Part shown: piece after piece, positions 620-57,959 of the stretch
Layout: each line of letters opens with the position of its first letter
Position numbering within the stretch: the stretch's first letter is position 1
DNA from: Minisyncoccota bacterium
GTDB lineage: Bacteria; Patescibacteriota; Minisyncoccia; Phycocordibacterales; PALSA-1337
Length of the DNA stretch: 64,000 bases
Direction: 5' to 3'
NCBI GenBank assembly: GCA_036516895.1
Contig: DATDZD010000002.1
Span: 13,769 to 77,768 of the forward strand
Notes under the pieces: model-generated
Told to the model about the DNA's origin: nothing
Databases searched by the model: none
Seen by the model: the letters and a program-made list of their open reading frames with translations, nothing else
Translations under genes and position numbers: made by a program

Positions 620-2416
620 TTATGGAGAAAGTATTATGATTTCTTCTTTCCAATCTGATGAAATGGAGACCTCTGTGTCAGATGTAGTATATCCTTCTTT
701 TGAGACCGAGACGGTATATATTCCGTCTGATAACCCGGAGAAAATCACCTGCCCGGGAGGAGTGCAGGAAGAAGTGTAAGTAAAAGCAATGTCGGAAATA
801 TTGGGAGTTGATGTAGAAGATTCTGTCGAGAGAAAAACTTTGTATCTAACAAAACGGTCATTGTCATGTATAGAGTTAATATTAGAATTCACCAAAGTGT
901 AATATGTGCTCACAGTACCGTCTGGACCTTTATAATCCCATGTGGTAGTTGCTGTGATTTCTCTGTTCGTAGCGACCTGAAATTTGACGCTATTTTCTCC
1001 TGAAGCTATGGGCTGGTCTGTGGGAGACCATATTATATTGTGAAAATTGCTATCTGAACCAGTATCTATTGTGGAAGATTCAAGATATCCGACGGGATTG
1101 TACTCGCCAAAAACATTTCGCAATTTAATTTCTCCTTCCTGGCTACTTGTATCAATATTTCCATCATCATAAAAATATTTTACAATGTCTGTGAAAACAA
1201 CTTGACCTGAACCGCCAGACCAGTCCGTTTGATTTATATATCCCCTATCTGTCTTTTTTGACGAAAAATATTCACCAGTGTCAGTAAGATTCACAGTAGC
1301 GTCCGCAATAGGCAAGCCCGTACTGCTGTCTTTGACAGTGACCGAAAGCCCTTTTGGATTTTTAGAAGTCACCACCAGTTGAACATTCTGTGAGCTATTT
1401 GGATTCAAAGCTATGAAATTTGGAGGATTGACCCCTATAATATCGTAAGAGTCATCAAGACTTTTAACAATGTAACTATCCCATTCCACAGAACTATTGG
1501 AATAGGAACCACTGCCATTTGTAATCAGATTTTGGGAATATTTCGGAAGATTGACGCCAATAAGCTTTGAGCCGACAAGCTTAAAATCAATACCGCCTAC
1601 TGGAGCGCATATTGAATTTATGCTTGAGAAATATAGCACGCTTAATTGGTCAATAGAGAAACTTATTTGGGTGACTTGTTGGATAACAACAGTGGCGTTC
1701 GGCTGAATTGGGTTTGGATTTTCCATATCCTCGGGTGGATATGTCCTGGCTGTAGAGTATCCAGATTTAGAGATAGTGATAGCGTAAGCATTGACGCCAG
1801 TAGGAGCGTCTACGATTTGGAGCATTCCATTTACATCAGTAACATCATCTATAATAATATCGGGGTCTGCGAGAGTATTCACTATATGCACATCGGCATT
1901 TTGGACTGGTTGCCCGCTCCCGTCAAAAACTTTTATAAACAACGCGCCATTATTGGAAGCTGTTTCCAAATTTTTTGGAGCAATAGTCGTCGTCAAAATA
2001 ATGGGGATGAAATTCTTGCAAGCGGGACAGTTCACTTGCACTTCTATGAGTTTATTATCGGCAGGAGAAAGGTCATTTGGAGCACCTCCAATAGTCCCAT
2101 CAAAAGGCAGGTCAATATTTCTGACAGTAAAAATGACAATAAAAGGAATTCCTCCTCTAGTAAAGTTCTGAACATGCGGAATTTTTCCATTGGGAATACC
2201 GGAGATTTCTCCAACATCGGAATATGAAAGATTGCGAGCAATTTCAAATTGCTCATTTGCAAGATTGAGACCTAAAATTTTATATTGATTCAAGTTGATG
2301 AGAGTAAATAAACTGGTATAAGCCTGGTATACAGCAGTAGCGATGACAAGAAAGACCGCTACCCCCACAAGAGTTTCAATGAGAGTAAAAGATTTTGAGT
2401 GTGTTCTATATCGCAT
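620..2416 (-). CDS. Large pilin-like protein (598 aa) with a prepilin-type N-terminus, possibly a tip adhesin or minor pilin
   Basis: N-terminus MRYRTHSKSFTLIETLVGVAVFLVIATAVYQ is a prepilin-like methylation motif with Ser rather than Gly at position -1. It sits in an operon with PilC/PilB and the long C-terminal region is Thr/Ser/Asn-rich and beta-rich. Confidence 0.6.
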   Translation of the reverse strand: MRYRTHSKSFTLIETLVGVAVFLVIATAVYQAYTSLFTLINLNQYKILGLNLANEQFEIARNLSYSDVGEISGIPNGKIPHVQNFTRGGIPFIVIFTVRNIDLPFDGTIGGAPNDLSPADNKLIEVQVNCPACKNFIPIILTTTIAPKNLETASNNGALFIKVFDGSGQPVQNADVHIVNTLADPDIIIDDVTDVNGMLQIVDAPTGVNAYAITISKSGYSTARTYPPEDMENPNPIQPNATVVIQQVTQISFSIDQLSVLYFSSINSICAPVGGIDFKLVGSKLIGVNLPKYSQNLITNGSGSYSNSSVEWDSYIVKSLDDSYDIIGVNPPNFIALNPNSSQNVQLVVTSKNPKGLSVTVKDSSTGLPIADATVNLTDTGEYFSSKKTDRGYINQTDWSGGSGQVVFTDIVKYFYDDGNIDTSSQEGEIKLRNVFGEYNPVGYLESSTIDTGSDSNFHNIIWSPTDQPIASGENSVKFQVATNREITATTTWDYKGPDGTVSTYYTLVNSNINSIHDNDRFVRYKVFLSTESSTSTPNISDIAFTYTSSCTPPGQVIFSGLSDGIYTVSVSKEGYTTSDTEVSISSDWKEEIIILSP

Positions 2417-2422
2417 CTATTT

Positions 2423-3637
2423 TTATATTGCATCTACAAGAGAGTACATTGGAGTAATCATGGCCACAGCAAAGAACCCCACCGCGACTGCTATAACAAT
2501 CATGAGAAACGGCTCAATGACAGTAGACATATCTTTTGTCTTCTGGTCAACATCTTCTTCGTAGTATACAGCCACTCCGATAAGCATTTCTCCTATTTTT
2601 CCAGTTTCTTCTCCCACATTTATCATCTCGCTCATAAAGATGGGATAAATATCTGGATTTTCGGAAAAAACTTTTGAGAGAGGGTCGCCTTTCTCTACAG
2701 CTGTAGCAGATTTCTCAAGCACTTTTCTGTAGTGTACATTTTGCACAATATCAGAAGTAATTCTCAATGATTCCAAAATATCAACATCAGATTCTATAAG
2801 AGAAGAGAGGGTTCTCGCAGTGCGAGCAACATTGACTTCTTTTATTAGATTGCCAATAAGAGGTATCTTCAGAATAATTTTGTGGATAATATTTTTGCCA
2901 CGCGCGCTTTTTGACCATAAATAAAAAGCGAAGTAAAGAATAATAAAGCCAGTAAAAATAATAATGCCGTCATTTTGCAGTGCATTGCTTATAAATAACA
3001 CAATTCTTGTTGAAATTGGTAGAGAAAGATGTAATTCTGTAAAAGTCTTTGTTAAAGTAGGAACAACATATGTCAAAAGAATAATAGTTATTATAATCAT
3101 GGCCAATAAAATAACAGCCGGATACAACAAAGCGCCACGAATCCTTCTCTGTAGAGTATAATTTTTCTCCATTTGCAGAGTAACTATGCGCAATGACTCG
3201 CTCATAGTTCCGCTTTGTTCTCCAGAATGGACCATGGCTATCATGAGAGATGAGAACATATTCTTAAATGAACCCATAGCGTCGCTCAACGGCTTGCCTT
3301 TTCGCACATCTTCATTGAGAGTTGAGATAATGCTTTTGACTTTCTTGTTAGTTCCCTGCCTTTCCATAACAGAGAGAGCTTGGGACATGGAAAGTCCAGC
3401 TTTTATCATAGCGCCAAGACTTCTGGAGAAATTTATTTTCTCTTGAGTCCTTATGGAATTGATAAACGGAATCGATATGCTATTTAAAGTCAGCATTTTT
3501 TTATTTTCTTCTACCGATATCACTTCTTCTCCTGATGTTTTAATCATTTTGTACAACTCAAAGCGGTCTTTGGCGTCTTGCTCGCCTTTATGAGTTTCTC
3601 CACTTGGCTTTTTTGCTTTGAAAATGAAATGTGGCAT
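2423..3637 (-). CDS. pilC: Type IV pilus assembly platform protein PilC (GspF family)
   Basis: 404 aa with a polytopic membrane architecture and duplicated GspF-like regions. It lies adjacent to the PilB ATPase and the pilins. Confidence 0.8.
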   Translation of the reverse strand: MPHFIFKAKKPSGETHKGEQDAKDRFELYKMIKTSGEEVISVEENKKMLTLNSISIPFINSIRTQEKINFSRSLGAMIKAGLSMSQALSVMERQGTNKKVKSIISTLNEDVRKGKPLSDAMGSFKNMFSSLMIAMVHSGEQSGTMSESLRIVTLQMEKNYTLQRRIRGALLYPAVILLAMIIITIILLTYVVPTLTKTFTELHLSLPISTRIVLFISNALQNDGIIIFTGFIILYFAFYLWSKSARGKNIIHKIILKIPLIGNLIKEVNVARTARTLSSLIESDVDILESLRITSDIVQNVHYRKVLEKSATAVEKGDPLSKVFSENPDIYPIFMSEMINVGEETGKIGEMLIGVAVYYEEDVDQKTKDMSTVIEPFLMIVIAVAVGFFAVAMITPMYSLVDAI

Positions 3638-3696
3638 ATTTTATATGAAATCTTTGTGTAAAATTTTTTATGACAGCATTAACATGTTTCTTCTGT

Positions 3697-5457
3697 CTAT
3701 TCAGATATGACACGAAGAACTTCTTCTATGGTAGTAAACCCTTGCACCGCTTTGAAAATACCATCTTCAATCATGGTCATCATTCCCTCTTCCTTTGCTT
3801 GCACTTCTATATCTTCTGATGTTCCTCCTTTTATAATGATATCTTTTATTGTCTGATTTACTTTTAGAACTTCATGAATTCCTATGCGACCCTTATAGCC
3901 ATCATCGTCTTTTCCGGCAACTGCTTTCCAAAAAGGAATTTTCTCCCAAGATTCTGTATTTTTGATGATTTTCTCTACTTTAAGCACTTGAAGGACACGA
4001 TCCAAATTAACAGACTTTGATAAAGACGCTATTTCCGGCTTTGACAGAAAATATTTTTCTTTATTTTCAGAGAGACGACGCACAAGCCGTTGGGCAATAA
4101 TGACATTTATAGTGGAAACTAGAAGGAATGGCTCTATTTTCATATCAATAAGTCGCGGTATGGCTCCAGCAGCGCTATTGGTATGTAGAGTAGAGAGAAC
4201 AAGATGACCCGTCAAAGATGCATTAACCGCTAATCCAGCAGTTTCATTATCACGAATCTCGCCAACCATGATAATATCAGGGTCTTGGCGAACCAATGTA
4301 CGCAAGCCGGAGGCAAATGTAAAGCCGATTTCGGGATTGACTTGCGTCTGATTTATACGCTTCATTTGATATTCTACAGGGTCCTCAATAGTGGAAATAT
4401 TAACATCTGGCTGGTTCAAAATATCAAGAATGGTATAGAGAGTTGTGGTTTTTCCAGAGCCAGTCGGGCCTGTGGTCAGTATCATTCCTGTAGTCTGTAT
4501 GACGGCGTTATGTATTCTTTCAAGTCCTTCTCCATGAAAAGCCAGATATTCCAGAGTGAACCCCGAAACATTTTCCCTAAGAAGACGCATGACTGTTTTT
4601 TCTCCATAATATGTGGGAAGAATAGAAACGCGAAAAGAAACTTTCTCATTATTCATATCCACCTTGAAACGACCATCCTGTGGGAGGCGTTTCTCATCAA
4701 GCTTAAGATTTGAAAGGACTTTTATGCGAGCGGTAATAGATGGTTCGGCATTTTTTGGCAAAATCATAGCATCATGTAGAAGACCATCTATGCGATAGCG
4801 AACCAAAAGTTCTTCTTCCATTGGTTCAATATGTATATCTGAAGCATTCTGCAAAATGGCGTGTTTAAGCAAAGTATCCACAATACGCACCACAGGCAAA
4901 TCTTCGGCTATTTTTTTTAAATCTTTCTCTGTTGTAGGATTTCCATTCTTTATGCCCGCTTCTTCCGCTATAGTCTTTAGCGTGGCTGATTCTTTTTGAA
5001 TCAAATCTCCAAATTCCGCCTTTAGACTCTTTTGATATTGAACAATTACATTTTTTATTGATTCTGTGTCGGTCAGACGAGGCAATATCTTCAGATTAAC
5101 TTTTTTTTTGACAAAATCAATAGCAGAGAGGTCATTGACTTCAAGCATTGCCACCTCCAAAGTATCATCTGTTTTCTTGAATGCTATAATATTGTGATTC
5201 CTAGCCACCGGTTCTGGAATCATAGACAATGTTTCAAAAGGAATCTTTCTTGACTTCAAATCAACAAAAGGAATGCCAAGAACATATGCCTGCATGCGAC
5301 GGAGATTGTCTTCTGTGATTTTTCCCGAGTTTACGAGAATCTCTCCCACCCCTGTCCCTTTTTTCTCGGCTTCTTTGAGAGCGTAATCAAAGTCAGTTCT
5401 AGAAACAAGATTAGAGTCAATAATAAATTTATTAAGTTGCGAGTCAAGGATGAGCAT
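3697..5457 (-). CDS. pilB: Type IV pilus assembly ATPase PilB (GspE family)
   Basis: Walker A TGPTGSGKTTTLY, Walker B and Asp/His boxes (DPDIIMVGEIRD, TGHLVLSTLHTNSA) are present. The N-terminal GSPII_E-like domain is also present. The likely start is the internal Met (MLILDSQ...) rather than the track start at 5547. Confidence 0.85.
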   Translation of the reverse strand: MLILDSQLNKFIIDSNLVSRTDFDYALKEAEKKGTGVGEILVNSGKITEDNLRRMQAYVLGIPFVDLKSRKIPFETLSMIPEPVARNHNIIAFKKTDDTLEVAMLEVNDLSAIDFVKKKVNLKILPRLTDTESIKNVIVQYQKSLKAEFGDLIQKESATLKTIAEEAGIKNGNPTTEKDLKKIAEDLPVVRIVDTLLKHAILQNASDIHIEPMEEELLVRYRIDGLLHDAMILPKNAEPSITARIKVLSNLKLDEKRLPQDGRFKVDMNNEKVSFRVSILPTYYGEKTVMRLLRENVSGFTLEYLAFHGEGLERIHNAVIQTTGMILTTGPTGSGKTTTLYTILDILNQPDVNISTIEDPVEYQMKRINQTQVNPEIGFTFASGLRTLVRQDPDIIMVGEIRDNETAGLAVNASLTGHLVLSTLHTNSAAGAIPRLIDMKIEPFLLVSTINVIIAQRLVRRLSENKEKYFLSKPEIASLSKSVNLDRVLQVLKVEKIIKNTESWEKIPFWKAVAGKDDDGYKGRIGIHEVLKVNQTIKDIIIKGGTSEDIEVQAKEEGMMTMIEDGIFKAVQGFTTIEEVLRVISE

Positions 5458-5696
5458 TGATATTATTATATCATGAGTATAAAAATAACCCCCAATTCGC
5501 CAAAGCTTTCGCCGAGACAAATCGAGGGTCAAACACTGACCATCCACTGTATCTTAAACACCAAGATTTTCTCTGGCGTGTTTATGCAGTTTTGTCAAGT
5601 CTAGCATTTTTGCTCCTCTCTGCTATACTTTCTACATCTGAAGTTCGCCTGCCGGCGAACATTTTTTATAAGAAATTACAAACTAAACACAAAACC

Positions 5697-12308: not shown

Positions 12309-12414
12309 TTATACACAGGTTTATCCACCGAGTTATAAACAGGTTACACACAGTTTATCCACTTATCCACATAAAGTTATCCACTTTTTGCAATATTATC
12401 CACAGTTATCCACA
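12309..12414 (+). promoter_or_regulatory. Array of about nine same-orientation DnaA-box-like 9-mers, three of them perfect TTATCCACA, spaced about 11 bp apart and followed by an AT-rich stretch immediately upstream of clpP
   Basis: Boxes start at about 12309, 12321, 12333, 12344, 12355, 12363, 12378, 12396 and 12406. The perfect copies are at 12363, 12396 and 12406. Confidence 0.5.
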
Positions 12415-14728: not shown

Positions 14729-14827
14729 GGTAAAATGGCTCGCCTGCTTGCGGTCGGAAGCACTTATTTTTGTCTCGCAAGCTCGAAAAAATAAGTCTTC
14801 CTCTCCGCAGCTCGCACGATTTTACTG
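14729..14827 (+). repeat. Intergenic imperfect-palindromic repeat, family copy A (about 99 bp) with conserved termini GGTAAAATGGCTCGC...GCTCGCACGATTTTAC
   Basis: Directly seen. It lies immediately downstream of the rny stop. There are nested inverted repeats (GCTTGCG/CGCAAGC and GGAAGCACTTATTTTT/AAAAAATAAGTCTTCC). It is homologous to the copies at 23562, 26795, 39388 and 43510. Confidence 0.6.
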
Positions 14828-14960
14828 GAAACTAAATATCTTGCATTATTTTGACTTATATGTTCCTATTTTTACCCCATTGCGTATAAAATGGCTTGTT
14901 ATATAATGATGTGGAGGTTATATACTGTTTCAGTTGATATTATTAATAATAACAATAAAT

Positions 14961-15233
14961 ATGAATAAAGTAGGAATTATAGACGCAGTCCACACAATAT
15001 TGGGTGGAACAAAGGTTCAAGCAGAGCAAGCTGTAGACACAATGTTAAATTCAATCATTGATTCTCTCAAAAGAGGAGAGGAGGTTTCTATAGCTGGACT
15101 TGGTATTTTCTCTGTAAAACAGAGAGCGGCGCGAGATGCTAGAAATCCTCGCACGGGAGAAGCTATAAAGGTAGCAGCTATGAAAGTGCCGAAGTTCCGA
15201 GCAGCAAAAGCTCTGAAGGATGCAGTAAAATAG
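14961..15233 (+). CDS. hup: DNA-binding protein HU
   Basis: 90 aa with the HU/IHF signature: MNKVGIIDAVHTILG..., GLGIFSVKQRAARDARNPRTGEAIKVAAMKVPKFRAAKALK. Confidence 0.85.
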   Translation: MNKVGIIDAVHTILGGTKVQAEQAVDTMLNSIIDSLKRGEEVSIAGLGIFSVKQRAARDARNPRTGEAIKVAAMKVPKFRAAKALKDAVK

Positions 15234-15405: not shown

Positions 15406-16086
15406 CTACCATGGGAACTTCTCTCTTTTGTACCAAAACTGTCCTGTCTCTATATTTTTATCTATTGCTGTATCAAAAATATATTTGGCTGATTCATCTG
15501 TGGTCATATCCCCTTTCCAAGCTCCCATATCTGTCTTAACTCTTCCTGGATGTATTGAAGAAACAGTGATTTTGTTTTTTAATCTGAAAGCTAGATATGT
15601 TGTGAACATGTTTAATGCGCATTTAGATATTTTATATGCTGGGTAATCTGCATGGTGGACTTTTTCAAGAGAGCCAGCCGATGAAGAAATGTTTACAATA
15701 TGCCCCCCATTATTTATTAAAGGCAATATTCTTTCAGTAAAATCAATTGGACCTATTAGATTGACTTCCAAAGTTTTCCTAAGCTTATCAATAACTACTG
15801 TATTTTCTCCTTCGTCAAAAAGTGCACCGGCATTATTTATATGAATATCAATCTTTTTGCTATTATCATTACTATCCATAGATAGAAGTTTTTCTATACC
15901 TGAAGCACACTCTTTTATACTTTTCGGTTCAAGTAAATCTAGCTTAAAAAGCTTTAAATTATCACGACCAAAATCAACATCTCCCGTAATAGAAGTACCT
16001 ATAACAAAATACCCTTCATTTATAAACTTATGAGCAAGTGCTTTTCCTATTCCTCTACTTATTCCTGTTATACATACTATTTTCAT
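15406..16086 (-). CDS. Short-chain dehydrogenase/reductase (SDR) family oxidoreductase
   Basis: TGISRGIGKALA Rossmann motif, an NNAG motif, and a YxxxK active site (YKISKCALN). Confidence 0.75.
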   Translation of the reverse strand: MKIVCITGISRGIGKALAHKFINEGYFVIGTSITGDVDFGRDNLKLFKLDLLEPKSIKECASGIEKLLSMDSNDNSKKIDIHINNAGALFDEGENTVVIDKLRKTLEVNLIGPIDFTERILPLINNGGHIVNISSSAGSLEKVHHADYPAYKISKCALNMFTTYLAFRLKNKITVSSIHPGRVKTDMGAWKGDMTTDESAKYIFDTAIDKNIETGQFWYKREKFPW

Positions 16087-16087
16087 T

Positions 16088-16161
16088 TGGTGCGGGATGG
16101 GAGAGTCGAACTCCCCACCACAGTTTGGAAAACTGTTATTTTACCGATAAACTAATCCCGC
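16088..16161 (-). tRNA. tRNA-Gly (anticodon UCC), CCA encoded
   Basis: Reverse complement GCGGGATTAGTTTATCGGTAAAATAACAGTTTTCCAAACTGTGGTGGGGAGTTCGACTCTCCCATCCCGCACCA. The acceptor stem is GCGGGAT/ATCCCGC. The anticodon stem ACAGT/ACTGT encloses the loop UUUCCAA, giving UCC. The T-loop is TTCGACT. An initial read as Trp was rejected after folding. Confidence 0.7.
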
Positions 16162-16270
16162 TTTCGTTTATTCATACTTTATAATTATTTACTTTTCCTT
16201 AATTCACCCATGAACAAAACTTATACTACCAGAAATATTTTTTTTTACTACTTCCCCACTTTCATGTCCT

Positions 16271-16702
16271 TTACATATTCCCAGTATGCTCATTCTCAAC
16301 AATCTTTTTTATCTCATCAACTTCTTCTTTCATCTCTTTTACTGTCTCACTCAACTCTTCTATTTGTCTTTCTTCTACTCCAACTTCTTTCTCTGTTCTT
16401 TCAGTTGCTTTTTTTTGATGTTTCAATCCAGATATAAGAATAGTGTCTCCAATAAAATAAGAGACGAACAGCCCTGTAGCCAAAAGGATGGCGGTAACGA
16501 TTAACATATTAATTGGTTCATAAAAGATGAAACCGAGAATACCGCCTTTTGCTTGTAAAATATCTGCTGTATGCCACACTCCTCTCCAAAATAATACAAT
16601 AGCTATACCACCAATGATTGTGTATATAATAGGATAATGGCTCAAATGACCTCGTACTTTATCTTCAAATTTATCAAAAAAGATTATGATTGATTTCCAC
16701 AT
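16271..16702 (-). CDS. Hypothetical membrane protein (3-4 TM) with an acidic coiled-coil C-terminus
   Basis: 143 aa. Hydrophobic segments IIGGIAIVLFW, GFIFYEPINMLIVTAILLATGLFVSYFIG. Confidence 0.45.
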   Translation of the reverse strand: MWKSIIIFFDKFEDKVRGHLSHYPIIYTIIGGIAIVLFWRGVWHTADILQAKGGILGFIFYEPINMLIVTAILLATGLFVSYFIGDTILISGLKHQKKATERTEKEVGVEERQIEELSETVKEMKEEVDEIKKIVENEHTGNM

Positions 16703-16759
16703 GTAAGTATTTAAATACCATCATAACATTATTTAATTCATAATACTGTAATCTATATA

Positions 16760-16835
16760 TGGTCGGAGCGCCGGGATTCGAACCCGGAGTCGCCTGTTCC
16801 CAAAACAGGAATGTTAACCGTTACACCACGCTCCG
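16760..16835 (-). tRNA. tRNA-Pro (anticodon UGG), CCA encoded
   Basis: Reverse complement CGGAGCGTGGTGTAACGGTTAACATTCCTGTTTTGGGAACAGGCGACTCCGGGTTCGAATCCCGGCGCTCCGACCA. The anticodon stem CCTGT/ACAGG encloses the loop UUUGGGA. The T-loop is TTCGAAT. Confidence 0.8.
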
Positions 16836-17009
16836 ATGATTTTCTTTAACTTTCTTTCTTTAACTTTTTTAACTTTTTATTACTAAGAACTTTCACATAC
16901 TAGCACAATAACCAATAAAACTCCATATTTTTAGCTCTGATTTGATAAAAACCTTATGTAAATATGAATTTATATAATATCTGCAAAATAATGTTTGTTG
17001 TGATGAGAT

Positions 17010-17396
17010 TTATAGAATAACATTTTCCATAAAAGTAACCTTTGCTCTTCTCGTTTTTTGGTCCATACGAACAACAATGACATGGAATTGAAATTCGGTA
17101 TCCAGCTTATACTTTCTCTCGAGCAAATAAGTCTGAACAGCTCTTTTAAGGCGTTTGCATTTAAGTTCATGGACATTTTCTTCTGGTCTATATTCATCTT
17201 TTGACCTATTATTTGTCTTTTTTACTATTATGCTTTTGACCTCAATGAAGTGGATTATGCCATCTTTTGCAACGATAATATCAATTTCACCCCACTTTTT
17301 GCTATAGTTTCTCTCAATAATAAGAAAATTATGCTTCTTTAGCCACTTACAAGCAATTTCCTCACCAATATCTCCTATAAGACGGTTATAAGCCAT
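17010..17396 (-). CDS. yraN: YraN/UPF0102 family endonuclease
   Basis: 128 aa. N-terminus [55 protein letters not shown] fits the UPF0102 signature (GE.D.I). Confidence 0.7.
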
Positions 17397-17408
17397 ATTA
17401 TTTGTCCT

Positions 17409-17448
17409 TTATACACATTGTCCACAGACTTATCCACAGTTATACACA
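17409..17448 (+). promoter_or_regulatory. Second phased array of DnaA-box-like 9-mers (TTATACACA, TTGTCCACA, TTATCCACA perfect, TTATACACA) at about 10-11 bp spacing
   Basis: Directly seen between the yraN start (17396, minus strand) and the tRNA-Gly(GCC) 3' end (17491). All four boxes share one orientation. Confidence 0.45.
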
Positions 17449-17490
17449 TCCATACACAGTATGACCCCCAATAATCTACAACTTTCCTAA

Positions 17491-17564
17491 TGGTGCGGGC
17501 ACCGGGAATCGAACCCGAATCTCGTCCTTGGCAAGGACGTGTTCTACCACTAAACCATGCCCGC
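17491..17564 (-). tRNA. tRNA-Gly (anticodon GCC), CCA encoded
   Basis: Reverse complement GCGGGCATGGTTTAGTGGTAGAACACGTCCTTGCCAAGGACGAGATTCGGGTTCGATTCCCGGTGCCCGCACCA. The anticodon stem CGTCC/GGACG encloses the loop UUGCCAA. Confidence 0.8.
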
Positions 17565-17748
17565 ATTTTGTTATTTTTACATATTATATTATGCAAGTGT
17601 AAATCACTTTCAATTCAGTATAAGATAATTCGTCTTTTTTTACCAGATTTTTTGCTATATAATACCACTTTCCTACCCCCCCCCACCAATACTTTTATCC
17701 CATTTATTTCTCTCTATTCTCTCCACTTTATGGGGTACAGATCACTTG

Positions 17749-17821
17749 TGCGCTCGGAGGGACTCGAACCCCCAACCCCCTGGTCCGAAGCCAGGTGCTC
17801 TATCCATTGAGCCACGAGCGC
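17749..17821 (-). tRNA. tRNA-Arg (anticodon UCG), CCA not encoded
   Basis: Reverse complement GCGCTCGTGGCTCAATGGATAGAGCACCTGGCTTCGGACCAGGGGGTTGGGGGTTCGAGTCCCTCCGAGCGCA. The anticodon stem CCTGG/CCAGG encloses the loop CUUCGGA. Confidence 0.75.
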
Positions 17822-17883
17822 GTATTATTGACTATATATAGTTTTATTACTCTCAATCACTCTAAACTTATGAACACCTTACA

Positions 17884-18576
17884 TCAACTATAATACCTCA
17901 TCAAGAGCTTTTGCCAAGCAATCACCTTTCTTAAAACCTCAACCTTTATAACCAAAATTTCCAAAGAACCCTTGTATTCCCTATCTCTTTCATTATTTCT
18001 AGACCTAATATACACAGTTTTTTGAAATAAATCATGAGGAATTCCGACTATTCTAGACCAAATTTCTTCACAATTTCGGTCTTTGTGAGATATATCCAGA
18101 AAAACCCTATATTTAGCCATTTTACAAGATAAATTGAGATATTTTTCCATCCAGACAAGAATTATCTTGATTATATTAACATCGGCACTTGTAAACTGAA
18201 AAGCACTACCTTGCTTTAGACCATGGGACAAATAAAGTCCCATTCCCAACATAAAAAATGAATCTCTTTGCAATTTTGGGAAATCTTTCTCAATATTCTC
18301 ATACATTATCTTTTCTTTGAAAATCTTTTTTGTTCGTATTGATATGGAAGCGTTGAGTCTTCCCTTTTCCATTTTAGCTTTTAGATTTTTTTGTAAAGCA
18401 ATTTTTTCAATTTCAGTTAGTCGTACATTTTTTACCCAATTTGAAACAGATGTTTTTGATATATTTAGCTTACTAGCGATATCATTGTATGAATAACCCA
18501 ACCTTCTCAATTCAATAGCTTTTTTGGCTATTTGTACAGTATCTCTCATGGTATATAGTATTATACCACTATTCAT
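17884..18576 (-). CDS. Hypothetical protein with an N-terminal helix-turn-helix
   Basis: 230 aa. An HTH-like segment (LGYSYNDIASKLNISKTSVSNWVKN) lies near the N-terminus. It is adjacent to the tRNA cluster and no catalytic family was recognised. Confidence 0.45.
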   Translation of the reverse strand: MNSGIILYTMRDTVQIAKKAIELRRLGYSYNDIASKLNISKTSVSNWVKNVRLTEIEKIALQKNLKAKMEKGRLNASISIRTKKIFKEKIMYENIEKDFPKLQRDSFFMLGMGLYLSHGLKQGSAFQFTSADVNIIKIILVWMEKYLNLSCKMAKYRVFLDISHKDRNCEEIWSRIVGIPHDLFQKTVYIRSRNNERDREYKGSLEILVIKVEVLRKVIAWQKLLMRYYS

Positions 18577-18646
18577 AACTATGCAAAATATAGTCTAAAT
18601 GTTAGAATTGCTATGGTCGTAATACCGATTTAATTTTAATCCAAAA

Positions 18647-20137
18647 ATGATAGAAACCGCAAAAAACTTCATTATTCCTACCGAAATCACATCAATCATT
18701 TACACTCTAGAAAAGAGTGGCTATGAAGCATACCTTATTGGGGGATGTGTGCGGGACCTTCTGCTTGGCAGGGTTCCAAAGGATTGGGATATTACTACAA
18801 ATGCCATTCCAGAAAAAATCATTCCCCTTTTTCAAAAGACTTTTTATGAAAACACTTTTGGAACTGTGGCAATAGTAAATGAATCCGCTATAGACAACAC
18901 ATTAAGGATTGTGGAAGTTACTCCATATCGTCTTGAAAGTGTTTATAGTGACTTCAGACACCCCAATGAAGTCAAGTTCAGTACCAAACTCGAAGATGAC
19001 CTGAAGCGTCGTGATTTCACTATTAACGCCATTGCAATGAGTTTATCCAAAGGCGCAATAAAAGACATAGTTGATCTTTATGGTGGTATAAAGGACATAA
19101 AGGACAGGAATATAGGGACTGTTGGTAATCCTATAGACCGTTTCAATGAAGATGCATTGCGTATGATAAGAGCTGTAAGATTAGCTACTGAACTAGGTTT
19201 CACGATTAACATAGATACAAAAATGGCTATACAGAGCCATAGAAAACTTTTAAACAAAATATCAATTGAGAGAATAAGAGAAGAATTGATAAAGATTATC
19301 ATGTCAAAAGAGCCGAAAAAAGGGCTAGAACTTTTGGAAGAAACGAGACTTTTACAAATAATCGTACCGGAATTACCAAAAGCAAAAGGAATAGAGCAAA
19401 ATCAAGCTCATGCTTATGATGTTTGGGAACATCTATTGAGAACACTTCAACACTCTGCCGACAAAGAATGGCCAGTAGAGATTCGTTTATCTGCTCTATT
19501 CCATGATATTTCAAAGCCAGAAACCCGTCGCTTTTCACGTGAAACTAACCAATATACTTTCTATGGACATGAAGTCGTTGGTTCACATGTAACAAGAACC
19601 ATACTAGAGAGACTCAAATTTCCAAGTAAGACCATAGAAAAAGTAACAAAATTAGTGCGTTGGCATATGTTTTTCTCTGATACAGAAACAATTACACTTT
19701 CAGCAGTAAGAAGAATGGTGAGTAATGTTGGTGTAGATAATATATGGGACCTTATGAACATACGTATTTGTGACCGTATAGGAACAGGTAGACCAAAAGC
19801 AAATCCTTATAGATTACGCAAATACAAAGCCATGATAGAAGAAGCCCTAAGAGACCCTGTGTCTGTATCAATGCTAAAAACTGACGGAAAACATCTTATG
19901 GAGGTTACACATGAAACTCCTGGACCCAAGATAGGATTTATACTACATGCTTTGTTGGAGGAAGTATTAGACAACCCAAATCTTAATACTTCTGAATATT
20001 TAGACAAAAAAGCTATGGAATTAGCCAAATTACCAATAAAAGAACTTGAAACTCTTGGAAAAATAGCAAAAGAAAAAAAAGAAGAAAAGGATATAGAAAA
20101 TATAAGTGAAATAAGAAAAAAGTACCATGTTTCATAA
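18647..20137 (+). CDS. cca: CCA-adding tRNA nucleotidyltransferase / poly(A) polymerase family with a C-terminal HD domain
   Basis: GGCVRDLLLGRVPKDWDITT is the nucleotidyltransferase head motif, the RRDFTINA motif follows, and the HD region is LFHDISKP...YGHEVVGSHV. Confidence 0.8.
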   Translation: MIETAKNFIIPTEITSIIYTLEKSGYEAYLIGGCVRDLLLGRVPKDWDITTNAIPEKIIPLFQKTFYENTFGTVAIVNESAIDNTLRIVEVTPYRLESVYSDFRHPNEVKFSTKLEDDLKRRDFTINAIAMSLSKGAIKDIVDLYGGIKDIKDRNIGTVGNPIDRFNEDALRMIRAVRLATELGFTINIDTKMAIQSHRKLLNKISIERIREELIKIIMSKEPKKGLELLEETRLLQIIVPELPKAKGIEQNQAHAYDVWEHLLRTLQHSADKEWPVEIRLSALFHDISKPETRRFSRETNQYTFYGHEVVGSHVTRTILERLKFPSKTIEKVTKLVRWHMFFSDTETITLSAVRRMVSNVGVDNIWDLMNIRICDRIGTGRPKANPYRLRKYKAMIEEALRDPVSVSMLKTDGKHLMEVTHETPGPKIGFILHALLEEVLDNPNLNTSEYLDKKAMELAKLPIKELETLGKIAKEKKEEKDIENISEIRKKYHVS

Positions 20138-20663
20138 GAAACCGTTTCACATGAAATCACTATAAATCAGTATCTATCTTAAAAAATTGATGGAATAAAC
20201 TAGAACATAGATTTTTGTATATTTTACACAGTATTAGTAAACAAATAAACCGCGTAATTAACGCGGGCATCAGAGGTTACATGATTGATTCCTGCGTATT
20301 TACGCGGTTCTTGTGAAATCATTAAATAGATCTAGAAGGATCATAGAAAAACTGACCTCGGGGTCAACTAAGGGAACAAGCGTATTATCTTGCTAAAAAG
20401 TTAAAAATTTCCCAGAGGGGAATTAATGATTTATGTTTGAGAAGAAATACGCTATAGACCAAAGCTGACAAAGGGTTGTTTTTTCTTTTATGATTTCAAA
20501 AAGCCTACTACCATTGATGACGAAGAACTATGTGTATATCTTTTCTCGGTCGGATATACAATCTGAAGATATTTTATCATTAATAAAAGACATGTAAAGG
20601 ACAGATAATAAAAAATCTGTGGATAACTCTTAGAACAGTTTGATTTTATTTTAAAGATGTCCT

Positions 20664-21467
20664 TTATAAAGAACACTTGAGTATAATTTCAATAGGACAA
20701 TGGTCTGAACCGAAAACATTATCTAAAATCTTGGTGCTACTTACATACTTCAATAGTGGAGAAGTGACAAAGAAATAATCAATTCTCCAACCAACATTTC
20801 TCTCTCTTGAGAAAGTTTTCATATCCCAATAAGTATATTTGTCCTTAAGATTTGGATATAAATGACGAAATACATCAATATAACCATTATTCAAAACTTG
20901 ATCAATCCACGCTCTTTCTATAGGCAAAAATCCTGTATTATCTTTATTTTCTTTTGGTCTAGCTAGGTCTATTTCGTTATGAGCAGTATTTGTATCTCCA
21001 CAAAATATTATTTCGTAGCCATTTCTCTTGTGTCTATTTATATATTTTAAAAATTCATCATAAAAATTTAACTTATATTCGAGTCGTTCTGGACACCCAC
21101 CACCATTTGGGAAATAGGTATTTATGATTAAGATTTTATTTGAACCAGAGAGCAAAGAACCCTTTTTGAAGAATAGACCTAGAAATCGTCCTTCTTGGTC
21201 ATATTCTTCAATTCCAAAACCATATTCAACTCTTTCCGGCTTAACTTTTGTATATACAGCTACTCCACTATATCCTTTTCTACCCTTTGAATGGTCAAAA
21301 TATCCATAATATCCGTAGGGATTACATATGCCTTCTTCTAACTGTTCTGGGTGAGCTTTTGTTTCTTGAATACAATAAACATCTGGTGACTCTTGTAAAA
21401 ACCAATCAAATCCGCCCTTTTTAACATTTGCTCGCAAACCATTTACATTCCAAGAGATAATTTTCAT
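20664..21467 (-). CDS. xth: Exodeoxyribonuclease III (AP endonuclease, EEP family)
   Basis: MKIISWNVNGLRANVKKG...YCIQETKAHPEQL and a C-terminal SDHCPIE are the Xth/APE1 family signatures. Confidence 0.85.
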   Translation of the reverse strand: MKIISWNVNGLRANVKKGGFDWFLQESPDVYCIQETKAHPEQLEEGICNPYGYYGYFDHSKGRKGYSGVAVYTKVKPERVEYGFGIEEYDQEGRFLGLFFKKGSLLSGSNKILIINTYFPNGGGCPERLEYKLNFYDEFLKYINRHKRNGYEIIFCGDTNTAHNEIDLARPKENKDNTGFLPIERAWIDQVLNNGYIDVFRHLYPNLKDKYTYWDMKTFSRERNVGWRIDYFFVTSPLLKYVSSTKILDNVFGSDHCPIEIILKCSL

Positions 21468-23561: not shown

Positions 23562-23659
23562 TAAAATCATGCGAGCATGCGGGGAGGAAACCCTATTTTT
23601 TCGAACCTGAGAGACAAAAATAAGTGCTTCCGACCGAAAGTAGGCGAGCTGATTTTACC
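23562..23659 (-). repeat. Intergenic palindromic repeat, family copy D in reverse orientation
   Basis: The reverse complement reads GGTAAAATCAGCTCGCCTACTTTCGGTCGGAAGCACTTATTTTTGTCTC...CCCCGCATGCTCGCATGATTTTAT. It lies between the NYN gene stop and the next gene start. Confidence 0.55.
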
Positions 23660-23670
23660 AAGATAAAAAA

Positions 23671-25207: not shown

Positions 25208-26770
25208 ATGAGCGTATCAAAAACATATAGTGCACAACTTTCTGGTCTTAAGACTCATATAGTAACTATAGAAGTGGACCTTTCAAATGGTCTTCATGCT
25301 TTTGTCATAGTCGGACTTGGAGATAAAGCAGTTGAAGAAGCGAAAGACCGTATTTCAGCGGGAATAAAAAATAGTGGATATATTTCACCAAAACAAAAAA
25401 ATCAAAAGGTTGTAATATCTCTTGCTCCTGCCGACCTTAGAAAAGAAGGACCTTCTTTTGACCTTGGCATGGCTCTTTGTTATCTCAAAGCAAGTGGAGA
25501 TATTAATTTTGATGCTGAAAAGAAACTTTTTCTTGGAGAGCTTTCTCTTGAAGGTCAGTTGAGAAAAATAAGCGGAGTGCTTCCTCTAGTCAAAGGAGCT
25601 TATGAAAAAGGATTTAGAGAAATATTTCTTCCTAAAGAAAATGCAATGGAAGCTGGGTTAGTGAAGGGTGTGACCATATATGCTGTTTGTAGTCTAGATG
25701 AAACAATAGGACATCTTATAAATCGGAAAAATGGTTTTATCAAAGCGTATCCGCCAACAAAAATCCTATACGAAAAACAGTCTTTTGATACTGATTTCTC
25801 TTTTATCCAAGGACAAGAAACTGCCAAACGAGGTTTAGAGATAGCAGCGGCGGGCGGACACAATATCGCCATGTATGGACCGCCGGGAACTGGAAAAACA
25901 ATGCTTGCCAGAGCATTTCAGACCATATTGCCTCCATTGAACCATGAAGAAATCCTAGAGGTTACAAGCATACATTCACTGGCGCGTATCTTGGACAAGC
26001 CGTTTATAACTTATCCGCCGTTTAGGTCTCCACATCACACATCCTCATATGCATCTCTAGTGGGAGGAGGACCATTCCCCAAGCCAGGAGAAATAACTCT
26101 GGCTCACCGCGGAGTGCTTTTTCTTGATGAATTTCCAGAATTTGACAGAAACGCCATTGATGCTCTGCGCCAACCACTTGAAGACCATTTCATTACAATT
26201 TCTAGAATAAAAGGCGTCATAGCCTTTCCCGCTCAATGTATTCTAATAGCCAGTATGAATCCCTGTCCTTGCGGGTATGGAAAAGAAAAGGGATGTTTGT
26301 GTACAGACAAAGACATAACTCGTTATAGAAGAAAAATATCAGGACCTATTATTGACCGTATAGACTTATGGGTTTCTGTATCAAAGGTGGAATATCAAAA
26401 ACTTGCAGGTCCCTACAAAGATTCTTCAATTAGTCCTTCCAAAAATTCCACAGAATTAAGCCGTGATTCCGAATCAATAAGAAAAAGAGTTTTAATAGCT
26501 CGCAAATCTCAAAAAAGAAGATTCGTAAGTAAAAAAATAACTAACAAGAGAATAAATGGCGAAATGAGTGTTTCCGATATTGAAAAATGTATCACTTTGT
26601 CTATTGATATAAGAAATCTTCTTACCACTTCTGCAGAAAAATTGTCCTTATCGGGCAGAGCATTTCATCGTGTCATAAAAGTGTCTCGGACAATAGCGGA
26701 TTTGGAAGGTGATAAAGAAATTAAAAAAGAGCATATTTTAGAAGCACTTCAATACAGGCAGAAGTTCTAG
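25208..26770 (+). CDS. comM: YifB/ComM family Mg-chelatase-like AAA+ ATPase
   Basis: N-terminal Lon-like domain (THIVTIEVDLSNGLHAFVIVGLGD), Walker A GPPGTGKTMLA, Walker B LFLDEFPEF, and the C-terminal ChlI-like domain. Confidence 0.85.
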   Translation: MSVSKTYSAQLSGLKTHIVTIEVDLSNGLHAFVIVGLGDKAVEEAKDRISAGIKNSGYISPKQKNQKVVISLAPADLRKEGPSFDLGMALCYLKASGDINFDAEKKLFLGELSLEGQLRKISGVLPLVKGAYEKGFREIFLPKENAMEAGLVKGVTIYAVCSLDETIGHLINRKNGFIKAYPPTKILYEKQSFDTDFSFIQGQETAKRGLEIAAAGGHNIAMYGPPGTGKTMLARAFQTILPPLNHEEILEVTSIHSLARILDKPFITYPPFRSPHHTSSYASLVGGGPFPKPGEITLAHRGVLFLDEFPEFDRNAIDALRQPLEDHFITISRIKGVIAFPAQCILIASMNPCPCGYGKEKGCLCTDKDITRYRRKISGPIIDRIDLWVSVSKVEYQKLAGPYKDSSISPSKNSTELSRDSESIRKRVLIARKSQKRRFVSKKITNKRINGEMSVSDIEKCITLSIDIRNLLTTSAEKLSLSGRAFHRVIKVSRTIADLEGDKEIKKEHILEALQYRQKF

Positions 26771-26794
26771 TAAAATCGTAAAAAATATCATCTA

Positions 26795-26966
26795 GGTAAA
26801 ATCGGCTCGCTTACTTGCGGTCGGAAGCACTTATTTTTGTCTCGCAAGCTCAAAAAAATAAATCTTCCTCCTTACAGGAGCGGTACACCTTTCGCATTTG
26901 ATTACAAATGCTCAAGGTCTTGCGAAAGCTTCGCTTTCTCACCCCGCAAGCTCGCACGATTTTACT
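26795..26966 (+). repeat. Intergenic palindromic repeat, family copy B (about 172 bp, carries an internal insertion)
   Basis: GGTAAAATCGGCTCGCTTACTTGCGGTCGGAAGCACTTATTTTTGTCTCGCAAGCTC...CCCGCAAGCTCGCACGATTTTACTT. It lies between the convergent comM and M23 peptidase genes. Confidence 0.6.
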
Positions 26967-28054: not shown

Positions 28055-28232
28055 TCGGCAATATCTGAAGGTCGTTTATTAAACGAAAAGGAAATGCGGA
28101 AATTTCTGTGTATGGCTCTATTGAGCCATATTTGTATCTCTATTTAATGAGATACACAATCAGGTTACTGGAAGATGACAATAAAGTCAATGAGGGTGGT
28201 GGATAGACAAAACTGTGCTATAGTGTTCTTGC

Positions 28233-39387: not shown

Positions 39388-39567
39388 GTAAAATCGTGCG
39401 AACATCCGTATATATCAGGTGTGGAGAGAATACTTTCTTTTTCCGGGTACGAGAATTTTTTACTAAAAATTCTCTCAAGTCCTCGCGCCGACGCGCTCGG
39501 AAGCCCCTCCAAAAGAAGTATTCTCTCCACACCTAGCATACAATAAAGAATGCGAGTCAATTTTACC
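39388..39567 (-). repeat. Intergenic palindromic repeat, divergent family copy E (about 180 bp, reverse orientation)
   Basis: It starts GTAAAATCGTGCGA and ends GCGAGTCAATTTTACC. The internal part is itself a long palindrome (GGTGTGGAGAGAATACTTCTTTT ... AAAAGAAGTATTCTCTCCACACC). It lies directly after the VirB4 stop. Confidence 0.5.
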
Positions 39568-39572
39568 AAAAC

Positions 39573-43487: not shown

Positions 43488-43509
43488 AATTATGCAAAAT
43501 TATTGTTTA

Positions 43510-43617
43510 GGTAAAATCAGCTCGCCTACTTGCGCTCGGAAGCTCTTTTATTTGTTCTCCGCCTGCTGGCGGATAAAAATAAAAGACTTCCTCACCGCAG
43601 GCTCGCACGATTTTACT
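43510..43617 (+). repeat. Intergenic palindromic repeat, family copy C
   Basis: GGTAAAATCAGCTCGCCTACTTGCGCTCGGAAGCTC...CACCGCAGGCTCGCACGATTTTACT. It lies between convergent genes (the 42228 gene and yidC). Confidence 0.6.
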
Positions 43618-44715: not shown

Positions 44716-44716
44716 A

Positions 44717-44851
44717 TTACACAGCTATTTTCTTTCTGCCTTTTGCCCTGCGACGCTTTATAACATTTCTTCCATTGCTAGTCTTGCTTCTAACAAGAAA
44801 ACCGTGTGTTTTTGCACGCTTTCTTTTCTTTGGTTTATAGGTAAATGACAT
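44717..44851 (-). CDS. rpmH: 50S ribosomal protein L34
   Basis: [44 protein letters not shown] is the L34 signature. The track ORF is longer but the conserved L34 starts at this Met. Confidence 0.85.
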
Positions 44852-44992
44852 ATTTAGCAAGAATACATTATGATAGAAGAAAAGGCAAGGAGTACGAGTA
44901 AAATTTAGGCGAAATCCGTTCCGCAGAAGTCTTTTTTTCTGACGCTTGCCGGAAGAAAAAAAGAGCTTGTGCGGAAGCAAGGATTTCACCAA

Positions 44993-45152
44993 ATTTTACC
45001 TAGACATTATTTTAATTTATCTTGTAGTTTTATTTTTCCACAGGTTATCAACATACTTATAAACTTTCCACAAGTTCTTTACTTTTTAAAGAAGTATATA
45101 CTACTAATACTATTTTATTTATTTTTATCATCATCATAAAAATCTCATAAAA
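44993..45152 (+). promoter_or_regulatory. AT-rich dnaA upstream region with degenerate DnaA boxes (TTTTCCACA, TTATCAACA, TTTCCACAA), an oriC candidate part
   Basis: Directly seen. It lies between the divergent rpmH and dnaA genes and ends in a very AT-rich stretch before the dnaA ATG. Confidence 0.4.
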
Positions 45153-46499: not shown

Positions 46500-46716
46500 A
46501 TTGTGGATATTGTGTGGAAAGATACTGTATTTATGTGTATAACTTTAGATAAAAATATGATAAATAAAAAACTTATAGAAGATATTAGAAGTAATTCAAA
46601 AATTATCAACAATTTAATTATTAAAATATATTTAAAAATATCGGTTTAAAAAAGTTATCCACATATCCACAGGACTAATAATAGTAATAAGTATTAATAT
46701 AAATTAAATTAAAAAT
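46500..46716 (+). promoter_or_regulatory. dnaA-dnaN intergenic AT-rich region with tandem DnaA boxes (TTATCCACA perfect, ATATCCACA), an oriC candidate part
   Basis: The sequence aaaaGTTATCCACATATCCACAGGact sits within a 217 bp spacer of more than 80% A+T. Confidence 0.45.
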
Positions 46717-57296: not shown

Positions 57297-57395
57297 TTTG
57301 TTATATTGTTATGACAATAATATGCTTATTTATCAAGGATACTATAGAAATCGTTATAATACAAGGATTAAAGTGTGGATAAGTGTTGTTATGTA

Positions 57396-57424
57396 TTGAC
57401 AAATCTGTTCAGTATGCTATGATT
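57396..57424 (+). promoter_or_regulatory. Candidate sigma-70-like promoter (TTGACA, 17 bp spacer, ATGATT) driving the GC-rich islet operon
   Basis: TTGACA is at 57396-57401 and ATGATT at 57419-57424, with the first islet ATG at 57434. A perfect DnaA box TGTGGATAA at 57374-57382 lies just upstream. Confidence 0.3.
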
Positions 57425-57433
57425 GTTTCAGAT

Positions 57434-57781
57434 ATGAAAACAACATACTTCGGTTTCGGGATCGCTCCCAGCATGTTTCCCTCGAATTGCACCATTCGTA
57501 AGCAGGAGCTTACGGTGGAGCAGGCAAAGGAAACCATCGCCGGGGGCGTGACCTCCTGCCTCAACCCTAGCCACAAGGCGAGCATTGAGGTGATGGAGAC
57601 GAGGTTCGGCATGAAGGTGGAGATACCGGCGAAAGCGCCGAGCGTCTCCCTCCAAGCTGGAGACCGCTTGGTGGTGATGGGGGTCAGGGGACTCCCCCGG
57701 TTGGAAAACCGGCACGAGTACACCCCCGAGGAGGTGGCAGGTGCGAAGTTCGACTTCGCGCTCTTCACGGTCGGGGAGTAA
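57434..57781 (+). CDS. DUF1874-like (STIV B116 / AcrIII-1 / Crn2 ring nuclease family) candidate; GC-rich foreign gene
   Basis: 115 aa from MKTTYFGFGIAPSMFPSN.... The pattern aromatic-xxx-S-x-M-F, a His at residue 47 (NPSHKAS), GDRLVVMGVRG and RLEN resemble the DUF1874 fold family as recalled from memory. Local GC is about 60% against about 33% for the host. The start follows the promoter at 57396. Confidence 0.4.
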   Translation: MKTTYFGFGIAPSMFPSNCTIRKQELTVEQAKETIAGGVTSCLNPSHKASIEVMETRFGMKVEIPAKAPSVSLQAGDRLVVMGVRGLPRLENRHEYTPEEVAGAKFDFALFTVGE

Positions 57782-57959
57782 TCTCGTAGGGTTGAAGATG
57801 AACCTAAAAACTTTCCTCTCCTGCAGAGTGTGCAGAGAACATGTGATGGTACAGCATATAAATGTATCCATAATGTGATTTGGGCAACCAAGTCCGACTC
57901 TGGGGAAGCTCCAGGGCGCCTGACAAGCGGAAACTGTTGGGATGATTCATTTCATCTCT

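Follow-up and report, generated by a model that had tools for sequence, protein, structure and literature searches.

A conserved DnaA-box array between yraN and tRNA-Gly in Paceibacteria, a candidate control region of yraN

Why should an ordered row of DnaA boxes, the sites read by the replication initiator, lie between a nuclease gene and a transfer RNA (tRNA) gene? The row is found in 64,000 nucleotides of a small-genome Minisyncoccota bacterium from groundwater (contig DATDZD010000002.1, positions 13,769 to 77,768 of the forward strand), the whole of which is called the window here and supplies the coordinates. It lies in the 94 bp spacer (17397-17490) between the start codon of yraN and the 3' end of tRNA-Gly(gcc). 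We consider it fairly probable that the array is a DnaA-box cluster close to the origin of replication (oriC) that forms the control region of yraN and gates its transcription, probably by repression. That it is a functional cluster bound by DnaA we hold with more confidence than the mechanism. The array and its neighbours are as follows.

17409-17417, plus strand: box 3, TTATACACA, found by pattern search with at most one mismatch; it corresponds to TGKKTATAA in relatives and begins 9 nt from box 2.
17418-17426, plus strand: box 2, TTGTCCACA, found by pattern search; begins 12 nt from box 1, and TGKGGA is its conserved part.
17430-17438, plus strand: box 1, TTATCCACA, perfect (on the sense strand of yraN, TGTGGATAA); it anchors the conserved module described below.
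17440-17448, plus strand: box 0, TTATACACA, an extra upstream box that begins 10 nt from box 1 and has a counterpart in only a subset of relatives.
17450-17458, plus strand: a weak fifth unit (box -1), CCATACACA, with three mismatches to the consensus, read from the sequence and not conserved in relatives.
17010-17396, minus strand: yraN (UPF0102, a PD-(D/E)XK nuclease; Pfam PF02021, E=1e-18), downstream of the array.
17491-17564, minus strand: tRNA-Gly(gcc), directly upstream of the array and on the same strand as yraN.
17748-17821, minus strand: tRNA-Arg(tcg), the first gene of the tRNA pair transcribed toward the array.

All boxes of the array share one orientation. From the end of tRNA-Gly(gcc), on the same strand as yraN, it is 32 nt to the weak fifth unit and 42 nt to the nearest good box, box 0. 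An earlier note on this DNA had counted four to five same-orientation boxes at 10-11 bp spacing, and the count stands, with four boxes of at most one mismatch and the weak fifth. Its spacing is right as about one helical turn, but the actual starts are 9-12 nt apart (9, 12, 10 and 10 nt; mean 10.25). If a cluster is at least three boxes in about 100 bp, beyond chance, the array is one, with four same-strand boxes in 40 bp, each within one mismatch of TTATCCACA. The boxes are confirmed as real boxes of the DnaA type. The YraN protein of the window is 100% identical to one named 'YraN family protein [Candidatus Paceibacterota]', and the contigs carrying that protein come from metagenome samples.

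Chance was gauged with 300 dinucleotide-preserving shuffles of the window. The window holds 48 boxes with at most one mismatch where the shuffles give 19.9 +/- 4.3, and 11 perfect boxes where they give 0.69, which bears out the earlier note's statement that boxes are far above random expectation. No shuffle had more than two same-strand boxes in 50 bp (27 of the 300 had two), and four were never reached. The excess is real and mostly located in three clusters. Outside these there are 28 boxes with at most one mismatch against 19.3 expected (P=0.04, a slight excess) and six perfect boxes against 0.67 (P=7e-5, a clear excess); the isolated perfect boxes that the note had placed at 20618-20626 and 57374-57382 were both recovered by the pattern search. 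The high box count can be understood because the window contains oriC, and DnaA-box clusters gather near oriC in Bacillus subtilis, other Firmicutes and Actinobacteria (PMC3245932).

Eighty species-level genomes with YraN proteins at 45-70% identity were collected, 78 of them with enough upstream sequence. A box in the yraN-sense orientation (TGTGGATAA) lies within 400 nt upstream of yraN in 74 of these 78 representative Paceibacteria genomes, and in 52 of the 78 it is the perfect box TTATCCACA in this orientation. The rate expected from the background of the same loci is 7.7% (binomial 5e-77, shared ancestry ignored). Aligned on box 1, the upstream sequences share a module of about 65 nt with the consensus AAAAC-TGKGGATAA-nTn-TGKGGA-yAn-TGKKTATAA-(A)AGACA-N3-5-AAT-ATGGCTTATAnnCGT. 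The box 1 position reads TGKGGATAA in 69/69 module sequences, which were chosen on this box; the box 2 core (module positions 13-18), whose positions were not tightly used in selection, carries 1.0-2.0 bits at each position; and the hexamer at positions 26-31, which resembles a -10 element, is conserved. The intergenic DNA flanking the module is otherwise unalignable among relatives, and the three core boxes are kept. In the window the module and its further conserved blocks are placed as follows.

17380-17444, minus strand: the whole module, matched by a 70-nt profile built from relatives (nhmmer E=1e-18), the sole strong match in the window.
17403-17408, minus strand: the conserved (A)AGACA block, AGGACA here, which also offers an AAGGA Shine-Dalgarno-like sequence to a read-through transcript.
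17382-17396, minus strand: the conserved block ATGGCTTATAACCGT, within which the ATG is the yraN start codon in this genome.

The same profile finds one match in each of the 20-kb loci of three relatives, with only weak partial matches elsewhere. An arrangement with box 0, TGTGTATAAcTGTGGATAA, is found in three relatives (L010, L012 and L045), and variants of it in four others (L019, L041, L057 and L016). Judged from this alignment, the array of the window is an expanded copy, with four to five boxes, of a conserved three-box module.

The module goes with yraN rather than with the tRNA genes. The common gene order is tRNA-Arg(tcg), tRNA-Gly(gcc), boxes, yraN and tRNA-Pro(tgg), and the boxes still precede yraN in eight loci where the tRNA genes are divergent or downstream of yraN (L028, L055, L058, L078, L079, L029, L053 and L061). 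The linkage was also tested in reverse by scanning public metagenome contigs with the module pattern alone, which gave 80 loci for analysis. A contig edge ended four of these; in 65 of the 76 usable loci yraN lies downstream on the same strand, at less than 600 nt in 62 of the 65. Eleven loci have no detectable yraN, five of them Firmicute-like. Conservation of the boxes among relatives, taken as the mark of functional constraint, is thus found in both directions of search, and the array is under strong purifying selection across the class.

Further sequences occur around the module. The palindrome GTTTCAYRTGAAAC, at times in several copies, lies between module and yraN in distant relatives (L033, L039, L041, L045, L049-L051, L061-L067 and others) and looks like the site of another dimeric regulator. 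It occurs in the window at 19533-19544 and 20145-20156, where five matches against 5.1 expected show no enrichment. GAGCCATAT is found downstream of the module in many relatives. The window spacer 28100-28135, between genes for an M23 peptidase and a UvrD-type helicase, holds TGTGTATGGCTCTATTGAGCCATATTTG, a near-palindrome of the ATATGGCT half-site seen after the yraN boxes.

Would the DnaA of this organism read such boxes? The dnaA gene lies at 45153-46499 and encodes all three Pfam DnaA domains, and its product can be aligned over its full length with B. subtilis DnaA. The residues which we take to be the DNA contacts of E. coli DnaA domain IV are R399, R407, Q408, K415, P423, D433, H434, T435 and H439. 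In the alignment the window DnaA retains all of them except K415, which is replaced conservatively by R. The dnaN gene follows at 46717-47823, and the spacer between the two holds, in order, TTATCCACATATCCACA (the box pair TTATCCACA-TATCCACA), GGAC, TAATAATAGTAATAAGTA (DnaA-trios) and AT-rich DNA, a unit (46655-46716) that is kept in three relatives. A layout of tandem boxes, GC-cluster and DnaA-trios is that of bacterial origins (PMC8287927). This spacer, 28 kb from the yraN array, is the true oriC, and its layout is canonical. Because the domain IV contact residues are kept and the organism's own oriC uses the same motif, its DnaA should read the canonical box. The region upstream of dnaA also has a conserved four-box set, which includes the TTATAAAC variant beside a CCACA box. 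From dnaA to yraN it is 28 kb in the window; two other genomes have 32 kb and 27 kb between these genes, so that the module is consistently close to the origin.

How the boxes might act on yraN is suggested by what is built into them. The 3' end of box 3 makes up a -10-like TATAAA, and the following promoter-like elements can be placed around the array, the first two from geometry.

17431-17436, minus strand: candidate -35 hexamer TGGATA, within box 1 and 17 nt upstream of the candidate -10.
17408-17413, minus strand: candidate -10 hexamer TATAAA, overlapping box 3; 10-12 nt from the ATG, and 12 nt in this genome.
17890-17917, minus strand: sigma-70-type promoter-like site ahead of tRNA-Arg, TTGGCA-16-TATTAT, from which read-through could arise.

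The register between boxes and ATG is fixed too. A set of 133 distinct module-like matches was drawn from genome and metagenome sets, and 75 of them have ATGG[CT] within 40 nt after box 3. The spacing is 12 nt in 44 sequences and 10 nt in 14, which is 58 of the 75. In 20 of the 75 the frame that begins there has no stop within the 200 nt examined, and the listed cases run into yraN; elsewhere the ATG starts an open reading frame (ORF) of 2-28 codons. A conserved leader peptide (MAYxRV/L...) was considered and rejected, because codon 3 is a stop in seven sequences in which the nucleotides are still conserved, so the constraint acts on the DNA or RNA sequence and not on a peptide.

Several other promoter assignments were tried and dropped. 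The clade has a recognisable promoter upstream of tRNA-Arg(tcg), gcTTGGCAaaagc-N-TATTAT with a 17-nt spacer, about 20-90 nt upstream of the tRNA in most relatives (L007-L086), and it serves as a working promoter consensus for the clade. A generic promoter was rejected as the identity of the module, since TTGGCA-N17-TATTAT does not resemble it. An alternative with the -35 in box 2 and the -10 at AAATAT was rejected for this genome, as the start would fall beyond the yraN ATG. TATAANRGACA as a general promoter signal shows a mere two-fold excess, with several matches inside coding sequence.

Because the boxes keep a fixed orientation and register with the promoter-like elements and the ATG, a DnaA-regulated yraN is the reading we favour; the fixed orientation, the fixed ATG register and the persistence beside yraN together suggest regulation as the selected function. 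In the simplest account the promoter would be built into the boxes and would give an mRNA with a leader of few nucleotides. DnaA, whose occupancy of the array we infer, would bind the perfect box 1 and spread head-to-tail, first to box 2 (start 12 nt away) and then to box 3 (a further 9 nt), both of them weaker. The bound protein would cover the -35, the spacer and the -10, so that RNA polymerase would be excluded and the promoter shut, and it might also stop read-through from the upstream tRNA-Arg/tRNA-Gly promoter. On this account abundant active DnaA would turn yraN down. Boxes 0 and -1, the additions in this lineage, would strengthen cooperative occupancy, and the cluster, about 28 kb from oriC, might also retain some DnaA as a minor sink. 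The E. coli dnaA promoter follows the same logic of repression by DnaA. So do DnaA-repressed promoters of B. subtilis (PMC3245932).

A number of observations weigh against this account. The candidate -10 (TATAAA or TATAAG) is without the usual final T, the candidate -35 agrees at 4 of 6 positions only, and the clear housekeeping promoter of the clade, TTGGCA-N17-TATTAT upstream of tRNA-Arg, is different. With poor hexamers and a different housekeeping promoter the promoter assignment is weak, and DnaA could activate yraN instead of repressing it. The frequent TGGGGATAA variant alters a box position that is presumably important for binding by E. coli DnaA. Two Paceibacteria-type contigs (L105 and L166) keep the full module including ATGGCT beside tRNA-Gly with no yraN detected downstream, so the module seems able to outlive, or move away from, yraN. 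The distance from module to yraN ranges from about 40 to 650 nt in relatives, which means that other elements lie between the two in many genomes. Finally, the statistics for conservation of the yraN boxes take no account of shared ancestry.

A DnaA-controlled yraN also finds a parallel outside the clade. The five Firmicute-like metagenome loci (L087, L101, L121, L133 and L157) have TGTGGATAA-ACC-TGTGGAAGA-TGTGTATAA upstream of an rlmH-type gene (SPOUT methyltransferase, PF02590), and their three-box geometry, box-N3-box-box, is the same as that of the Paceibacteria module. We take rlmH to be yydA of B. subtilis. At the B. subtilis yydA cluster DnaA binds, the cluster carries the yydA promoter, and DnaA represses yydA (PMC3245932, PMC4447404). 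The match in geometry suggests that box-N3-box-box is a form of DnaA site already known to work. More broadly, the yydA, ywlC, sda and dnaA clusters of B. subtilis resemble the array in having several consensus-like boxes in less than 100 bp, near oriC and overlapping the promoter of a neighbouring gene, a promoter that is a candidate one here. DnaA represses yydA, ywlC and dnaA in B. subtilis, and the clusters also restrain initiation (PMC3245932, PMC4447404). There are differences as well. The Bacillus clusters sit at different genes in different species (PMC3245932), whereas the array stays at one gene, yraN, across the class; the yraN module also has extra conserved blocks in a fixed ATG register, and its host belongs to the uncultured Patescibacteria. 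Clusters of DnaA boxes at promoters near oriC are thus a known kind of element, and class-wide fixation on one gene is what differs from Bacillus.

The array could instead be mainly a DnaA sink or a DnaA-inactivating locus, like E. coli datA or the yydA/ywcI clusters of B. subtilis, with its place beside yraN incidental. We think this unlikely. The array does lie 27-32 kb from dnaA in three genomes, clusters near oriC do restrain initiation in B. subtilis (PMC3245932), datA likewise lies directly downstream of tRNA-Gly(GCC) genes (PMC10950094), and L105 and L166 hold the module without yraN. Against this, the boxes go with yraN and not with the tRNA genes when gene order changes, and a pure sink would need neither the fixed orientation to yraN (74/78) nor the fixed ATG register. 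Three to five boxes would also hold few DnaA molecules. The two roles are compatible, and a minor buffering of DnaA may occur beside a regulatory function.

The comparison with datA deserves some detail, since both clusters sit directly behind tRNA-Gly(GCC) genes and would both be exposed to read-through from a tRNA promoter. At the E. coli locus, which was checked, the boxes start 19 nt after glyY and are spread over hundreds of bp in mixed orientation. On the sense strand of the tRNA, the two boxes closest to it are TTATCCACA in E. coli and TGTGGATAA at the yraN array, the opposite direction. One of the datA boxes coincides in part with a terminator/attenuator and with the -35 of a small gene downstream (PMC10950094). 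The datA locus, which stimulates the hydrolysis of DnaA-ATP, also requires a site for integration host factor (IHF); at the yraN array no search for an IHF site was made, and only an HU-type gene was noticed (14934-15233; Bac_DNA_binding in relatives). That both clusters adjoin tRNA-Gly(GCC) may be coincidental, since in relatives with displaced tRNA genes the boxes remain with yraN.

The same neighbourhood allows another reading, in which the array is a roadblock or attenuator and yraN is transcribed by read-through from the tRNA-Arg/tRNA-Gly promoter that bound DnaA halts or slows. Much of the local arrangement would suit it. In the window tRNA-Arg, tRNA-Gly and yraN are on one strand behind a good promoter-like site upstream of tRNA-Arg, no terminator-like site was found between tRNA-Gly and yraN, and the AAGGA 9 nt ahead of the ATG could serve a read-through mRNA. 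DnaA at datA box 2 reduces read-through from the E. coli tRNA-Gly(GCC) operon glyVXY (PMC10950094), and a weak hairpin with a T run occurs just past the boxes in many relatives. We give it a low chance, as the module is kept in the eight loci named above where the tRNA genes are divergent or downstream, and RNAalifold gave no conserved structure past the boxes (no pairs predicted for 27 sequences downstream of them). It is compatible with a DnaA-repressed yraN promoter, and the two could act jointly.

A conserved terminator or riboswitch was considered separately and dropped. Single-sequence folds gave weak AAGACA...UGUCUU hairpins, at -4 to -13 kcal/mol, that are missing in many lineages. Near the array, Rfam searches (the whole window at gathering score, 16000-21000 at E<=1) found only tRNAs, with two weak sub-threshold matches antisense to two of the tRNA genes.

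It seems quite improbable that the repeats are bound by another factor, or are the core promoter of some sigma factor, with the likeness to DnaA boxes coincidental. A G at position 3 of TGKGGATAA in 16/69 copies of box 1 and 24/69 of box 2 would fit such a factor, as would a conserved helix-turn-helix gene close by (17884-18576) and the conserved flanks AAAAC, AGACA and ATGGCTTATA, which are not DnaA boxes. However, the exact 9-mer TTATCCACA recurs in 52/78 relatives, and the same motif with the same box-N3-box spacing is used in the lineage's oriC and dnaA promoter. The geometry shared with the five rlmH loci speaks for DnaA as well, and as to a sigma factor, the clade's housekeeping promoter is different and a single promoter needs no three direct repeats.

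A second replication origin or an origin remnant is very improbable. Like the basal unwinding system of oriC (PMC8287927), the array has tandem head-to-tail boxes, with the better match upstream and no gap longer than 3 bp. That system also has trios (3'-GAT-5' repeats, about 13 bp from the main box) and then an AT-rich element, whereas no run of DnaA-trios and no AT-rich element follows the yraN boxes; on the plus strand GTATGACCCCCAATAATCTACAAC stands between them and the tRNA. Relatives do not share the sequence past GTTTT, and the complete conserved unit sits between dnaA and dnaN, with the array 28 kb from dnaA. The DnaA-reactivating sequences (DARS) of E. coli make another partial parallel. 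Their function requires box I to face boxes II and III, and their regulation needs flanking IHF and Fis sites. All boxes of the yraN array point one way and do not follow that orientation rule. The likeness is in form, a compact three-box set outside oriC, as DARS1 and DARS2 are described in PMC6868365. A functionless array, born by chance or by recent slippage of a tandem repeat, would fit the mutual likeness of the units, their length of about 10 nt and the lineage-specific boxes 0 and -1, but the idea is hardly credible when the cluster is absent from all 300 shuffles and the core boxes are kept among genomes whose YraN proteins are only 45-70% identical.

Is the array part of a larger regulon? 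The earlier note had proposed a DnaA regulon or several titration sites. A DnaA-controlled yraN is favoured on the grounds given above, the fixed orientation and register; the evidence does not extend to a multi-gene regulon. A larger array lies between rsmE and clpP (12309-12414); it has about ten same-strand boxes, three of them perfect, and is denser than oriC. Three relatives (L171-L173) match the window in gene order over 20 kb, yet their clpP-rsmE spacers are 48-107 bp long and have no boxes; the nearest relative found (L174, 67% RsmE identity) has at least two boxes at a contig end. Because it is missing in the three same-order relatives, this array looks lineage-specific and like a gain, and a titration-type or recently evolved site is the better fit. 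A conserved multi-gene regulon was rejected on the same spacers, the evidence for conserved control going no further than dnaA and yraN. In about 0.94 Mb of related loci, box clusters besides the module were almost lacking, with one apparent exception (L050, 2722-2790).

A single box, perfect or with one mismatch, occurs in the divergent spacer upstream of nusA in three relatives (L171 at 14224, L172 at 14250, L173 at 14422) and marks a possible further conserved DnaA target.

What would DnaA control of yraN mean for the cell? YraN, the product of a widespread gene, is a single-stranded DNA endonuclease that partners the ComM helicase on D-loops in natural transformation, according to a preprint that makes no mention of DnaA (bioRxiv 10.1101/2024.02.06.579203). 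The window encodes ComM at 25208-26770, 8 kb from the array, and type IV pilus genes at 620-5547. Natural competence has been shown for one cultivated group of the Candidate Phyla Radiation (CPR) (PMC10633639). We suggest, tentatively, that DnaA might directly gate YraN across Paceibacteria and so tie recombination of incoming DNA to the initiation cycle, with the module doubling as a datA-like DnaA buffer. For example, a non-specific single-strand nuclease would be held low while active DnaA is high and the origin is unwinding. Such a coupling of transformation to replication through yraN is speculation resting on the conserved linkage. Our literature search turned up neither a paper on DnaA boxes in Patescibacteria or CPR nor one in which yraN is regulated by DnaA.

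Gene regulation and replication control are barely known in the CPR, most members of which are unculturable. The yraN module is a clearly bounded regulatory site, conserved across a class, for which a protein (DnaA) and a target gene, both already known, can be named. If DnaA gates yraN, the site would connect replication state directly with the recombination step of transformation, and would join E. coli datA as the second example of DnaA boxes clustered behind tRNA-Gly(GCC) genes. If it does not, the module can still serve to mark how DNA near oriC is organised in these genomes.

Some other intergenic sequences of the window were noted along the way, two of them around the isolated perfect boxes. 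The 526 bp between cca and an exonuclease III-family xth-like gene (20138-20663) have no convincing ORF and contain the perfect box at 20618, followed by CTC as in the module. Several AAAGACA, AAGGACA and TGTCCTT motifs occur there, with GTTTCA..TGAAAC palindromes at the left end and GC-rich self-complementary stretches at 20250-20310, and no Rfam match at E<=1. The second region is a gene-poor island (57297-59539) with a G+C of 0.43-0.44 against about 0.35 elsewhere and the perfect box 57374 at its left edge. It carries two direct, hammerhead-like repeats, CTGATGAG...CGAAA (57955-58006 and 58970-59021), which are 81% identical and 1015 nt apart, and the second copy attains the gathering score of Rfam Hammerhead_3 (58973-59027). 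Two small ORFs each follow the same strong AAGGAGGTGAAA ribosome-binding repeat (58441-58477 and 59040-59076). The island would fit a mobile or satellite-like element.

A dispersed element of about 75-80 nt, with the core GGCTCGC..TTGCGGTCGGAAGCACTTATTTTTGTCTCGCAAGCTC, occurs in intergenic DNA in both orientations at 14732-14809, 23578-23669, 26790-26871 and 43500-43555, the copies being 84-92% alike. Similar sequence is also present in the spacers 39388-39572 and 44716-45152. The element may be a terminator-type or a miniature mobile repeat.

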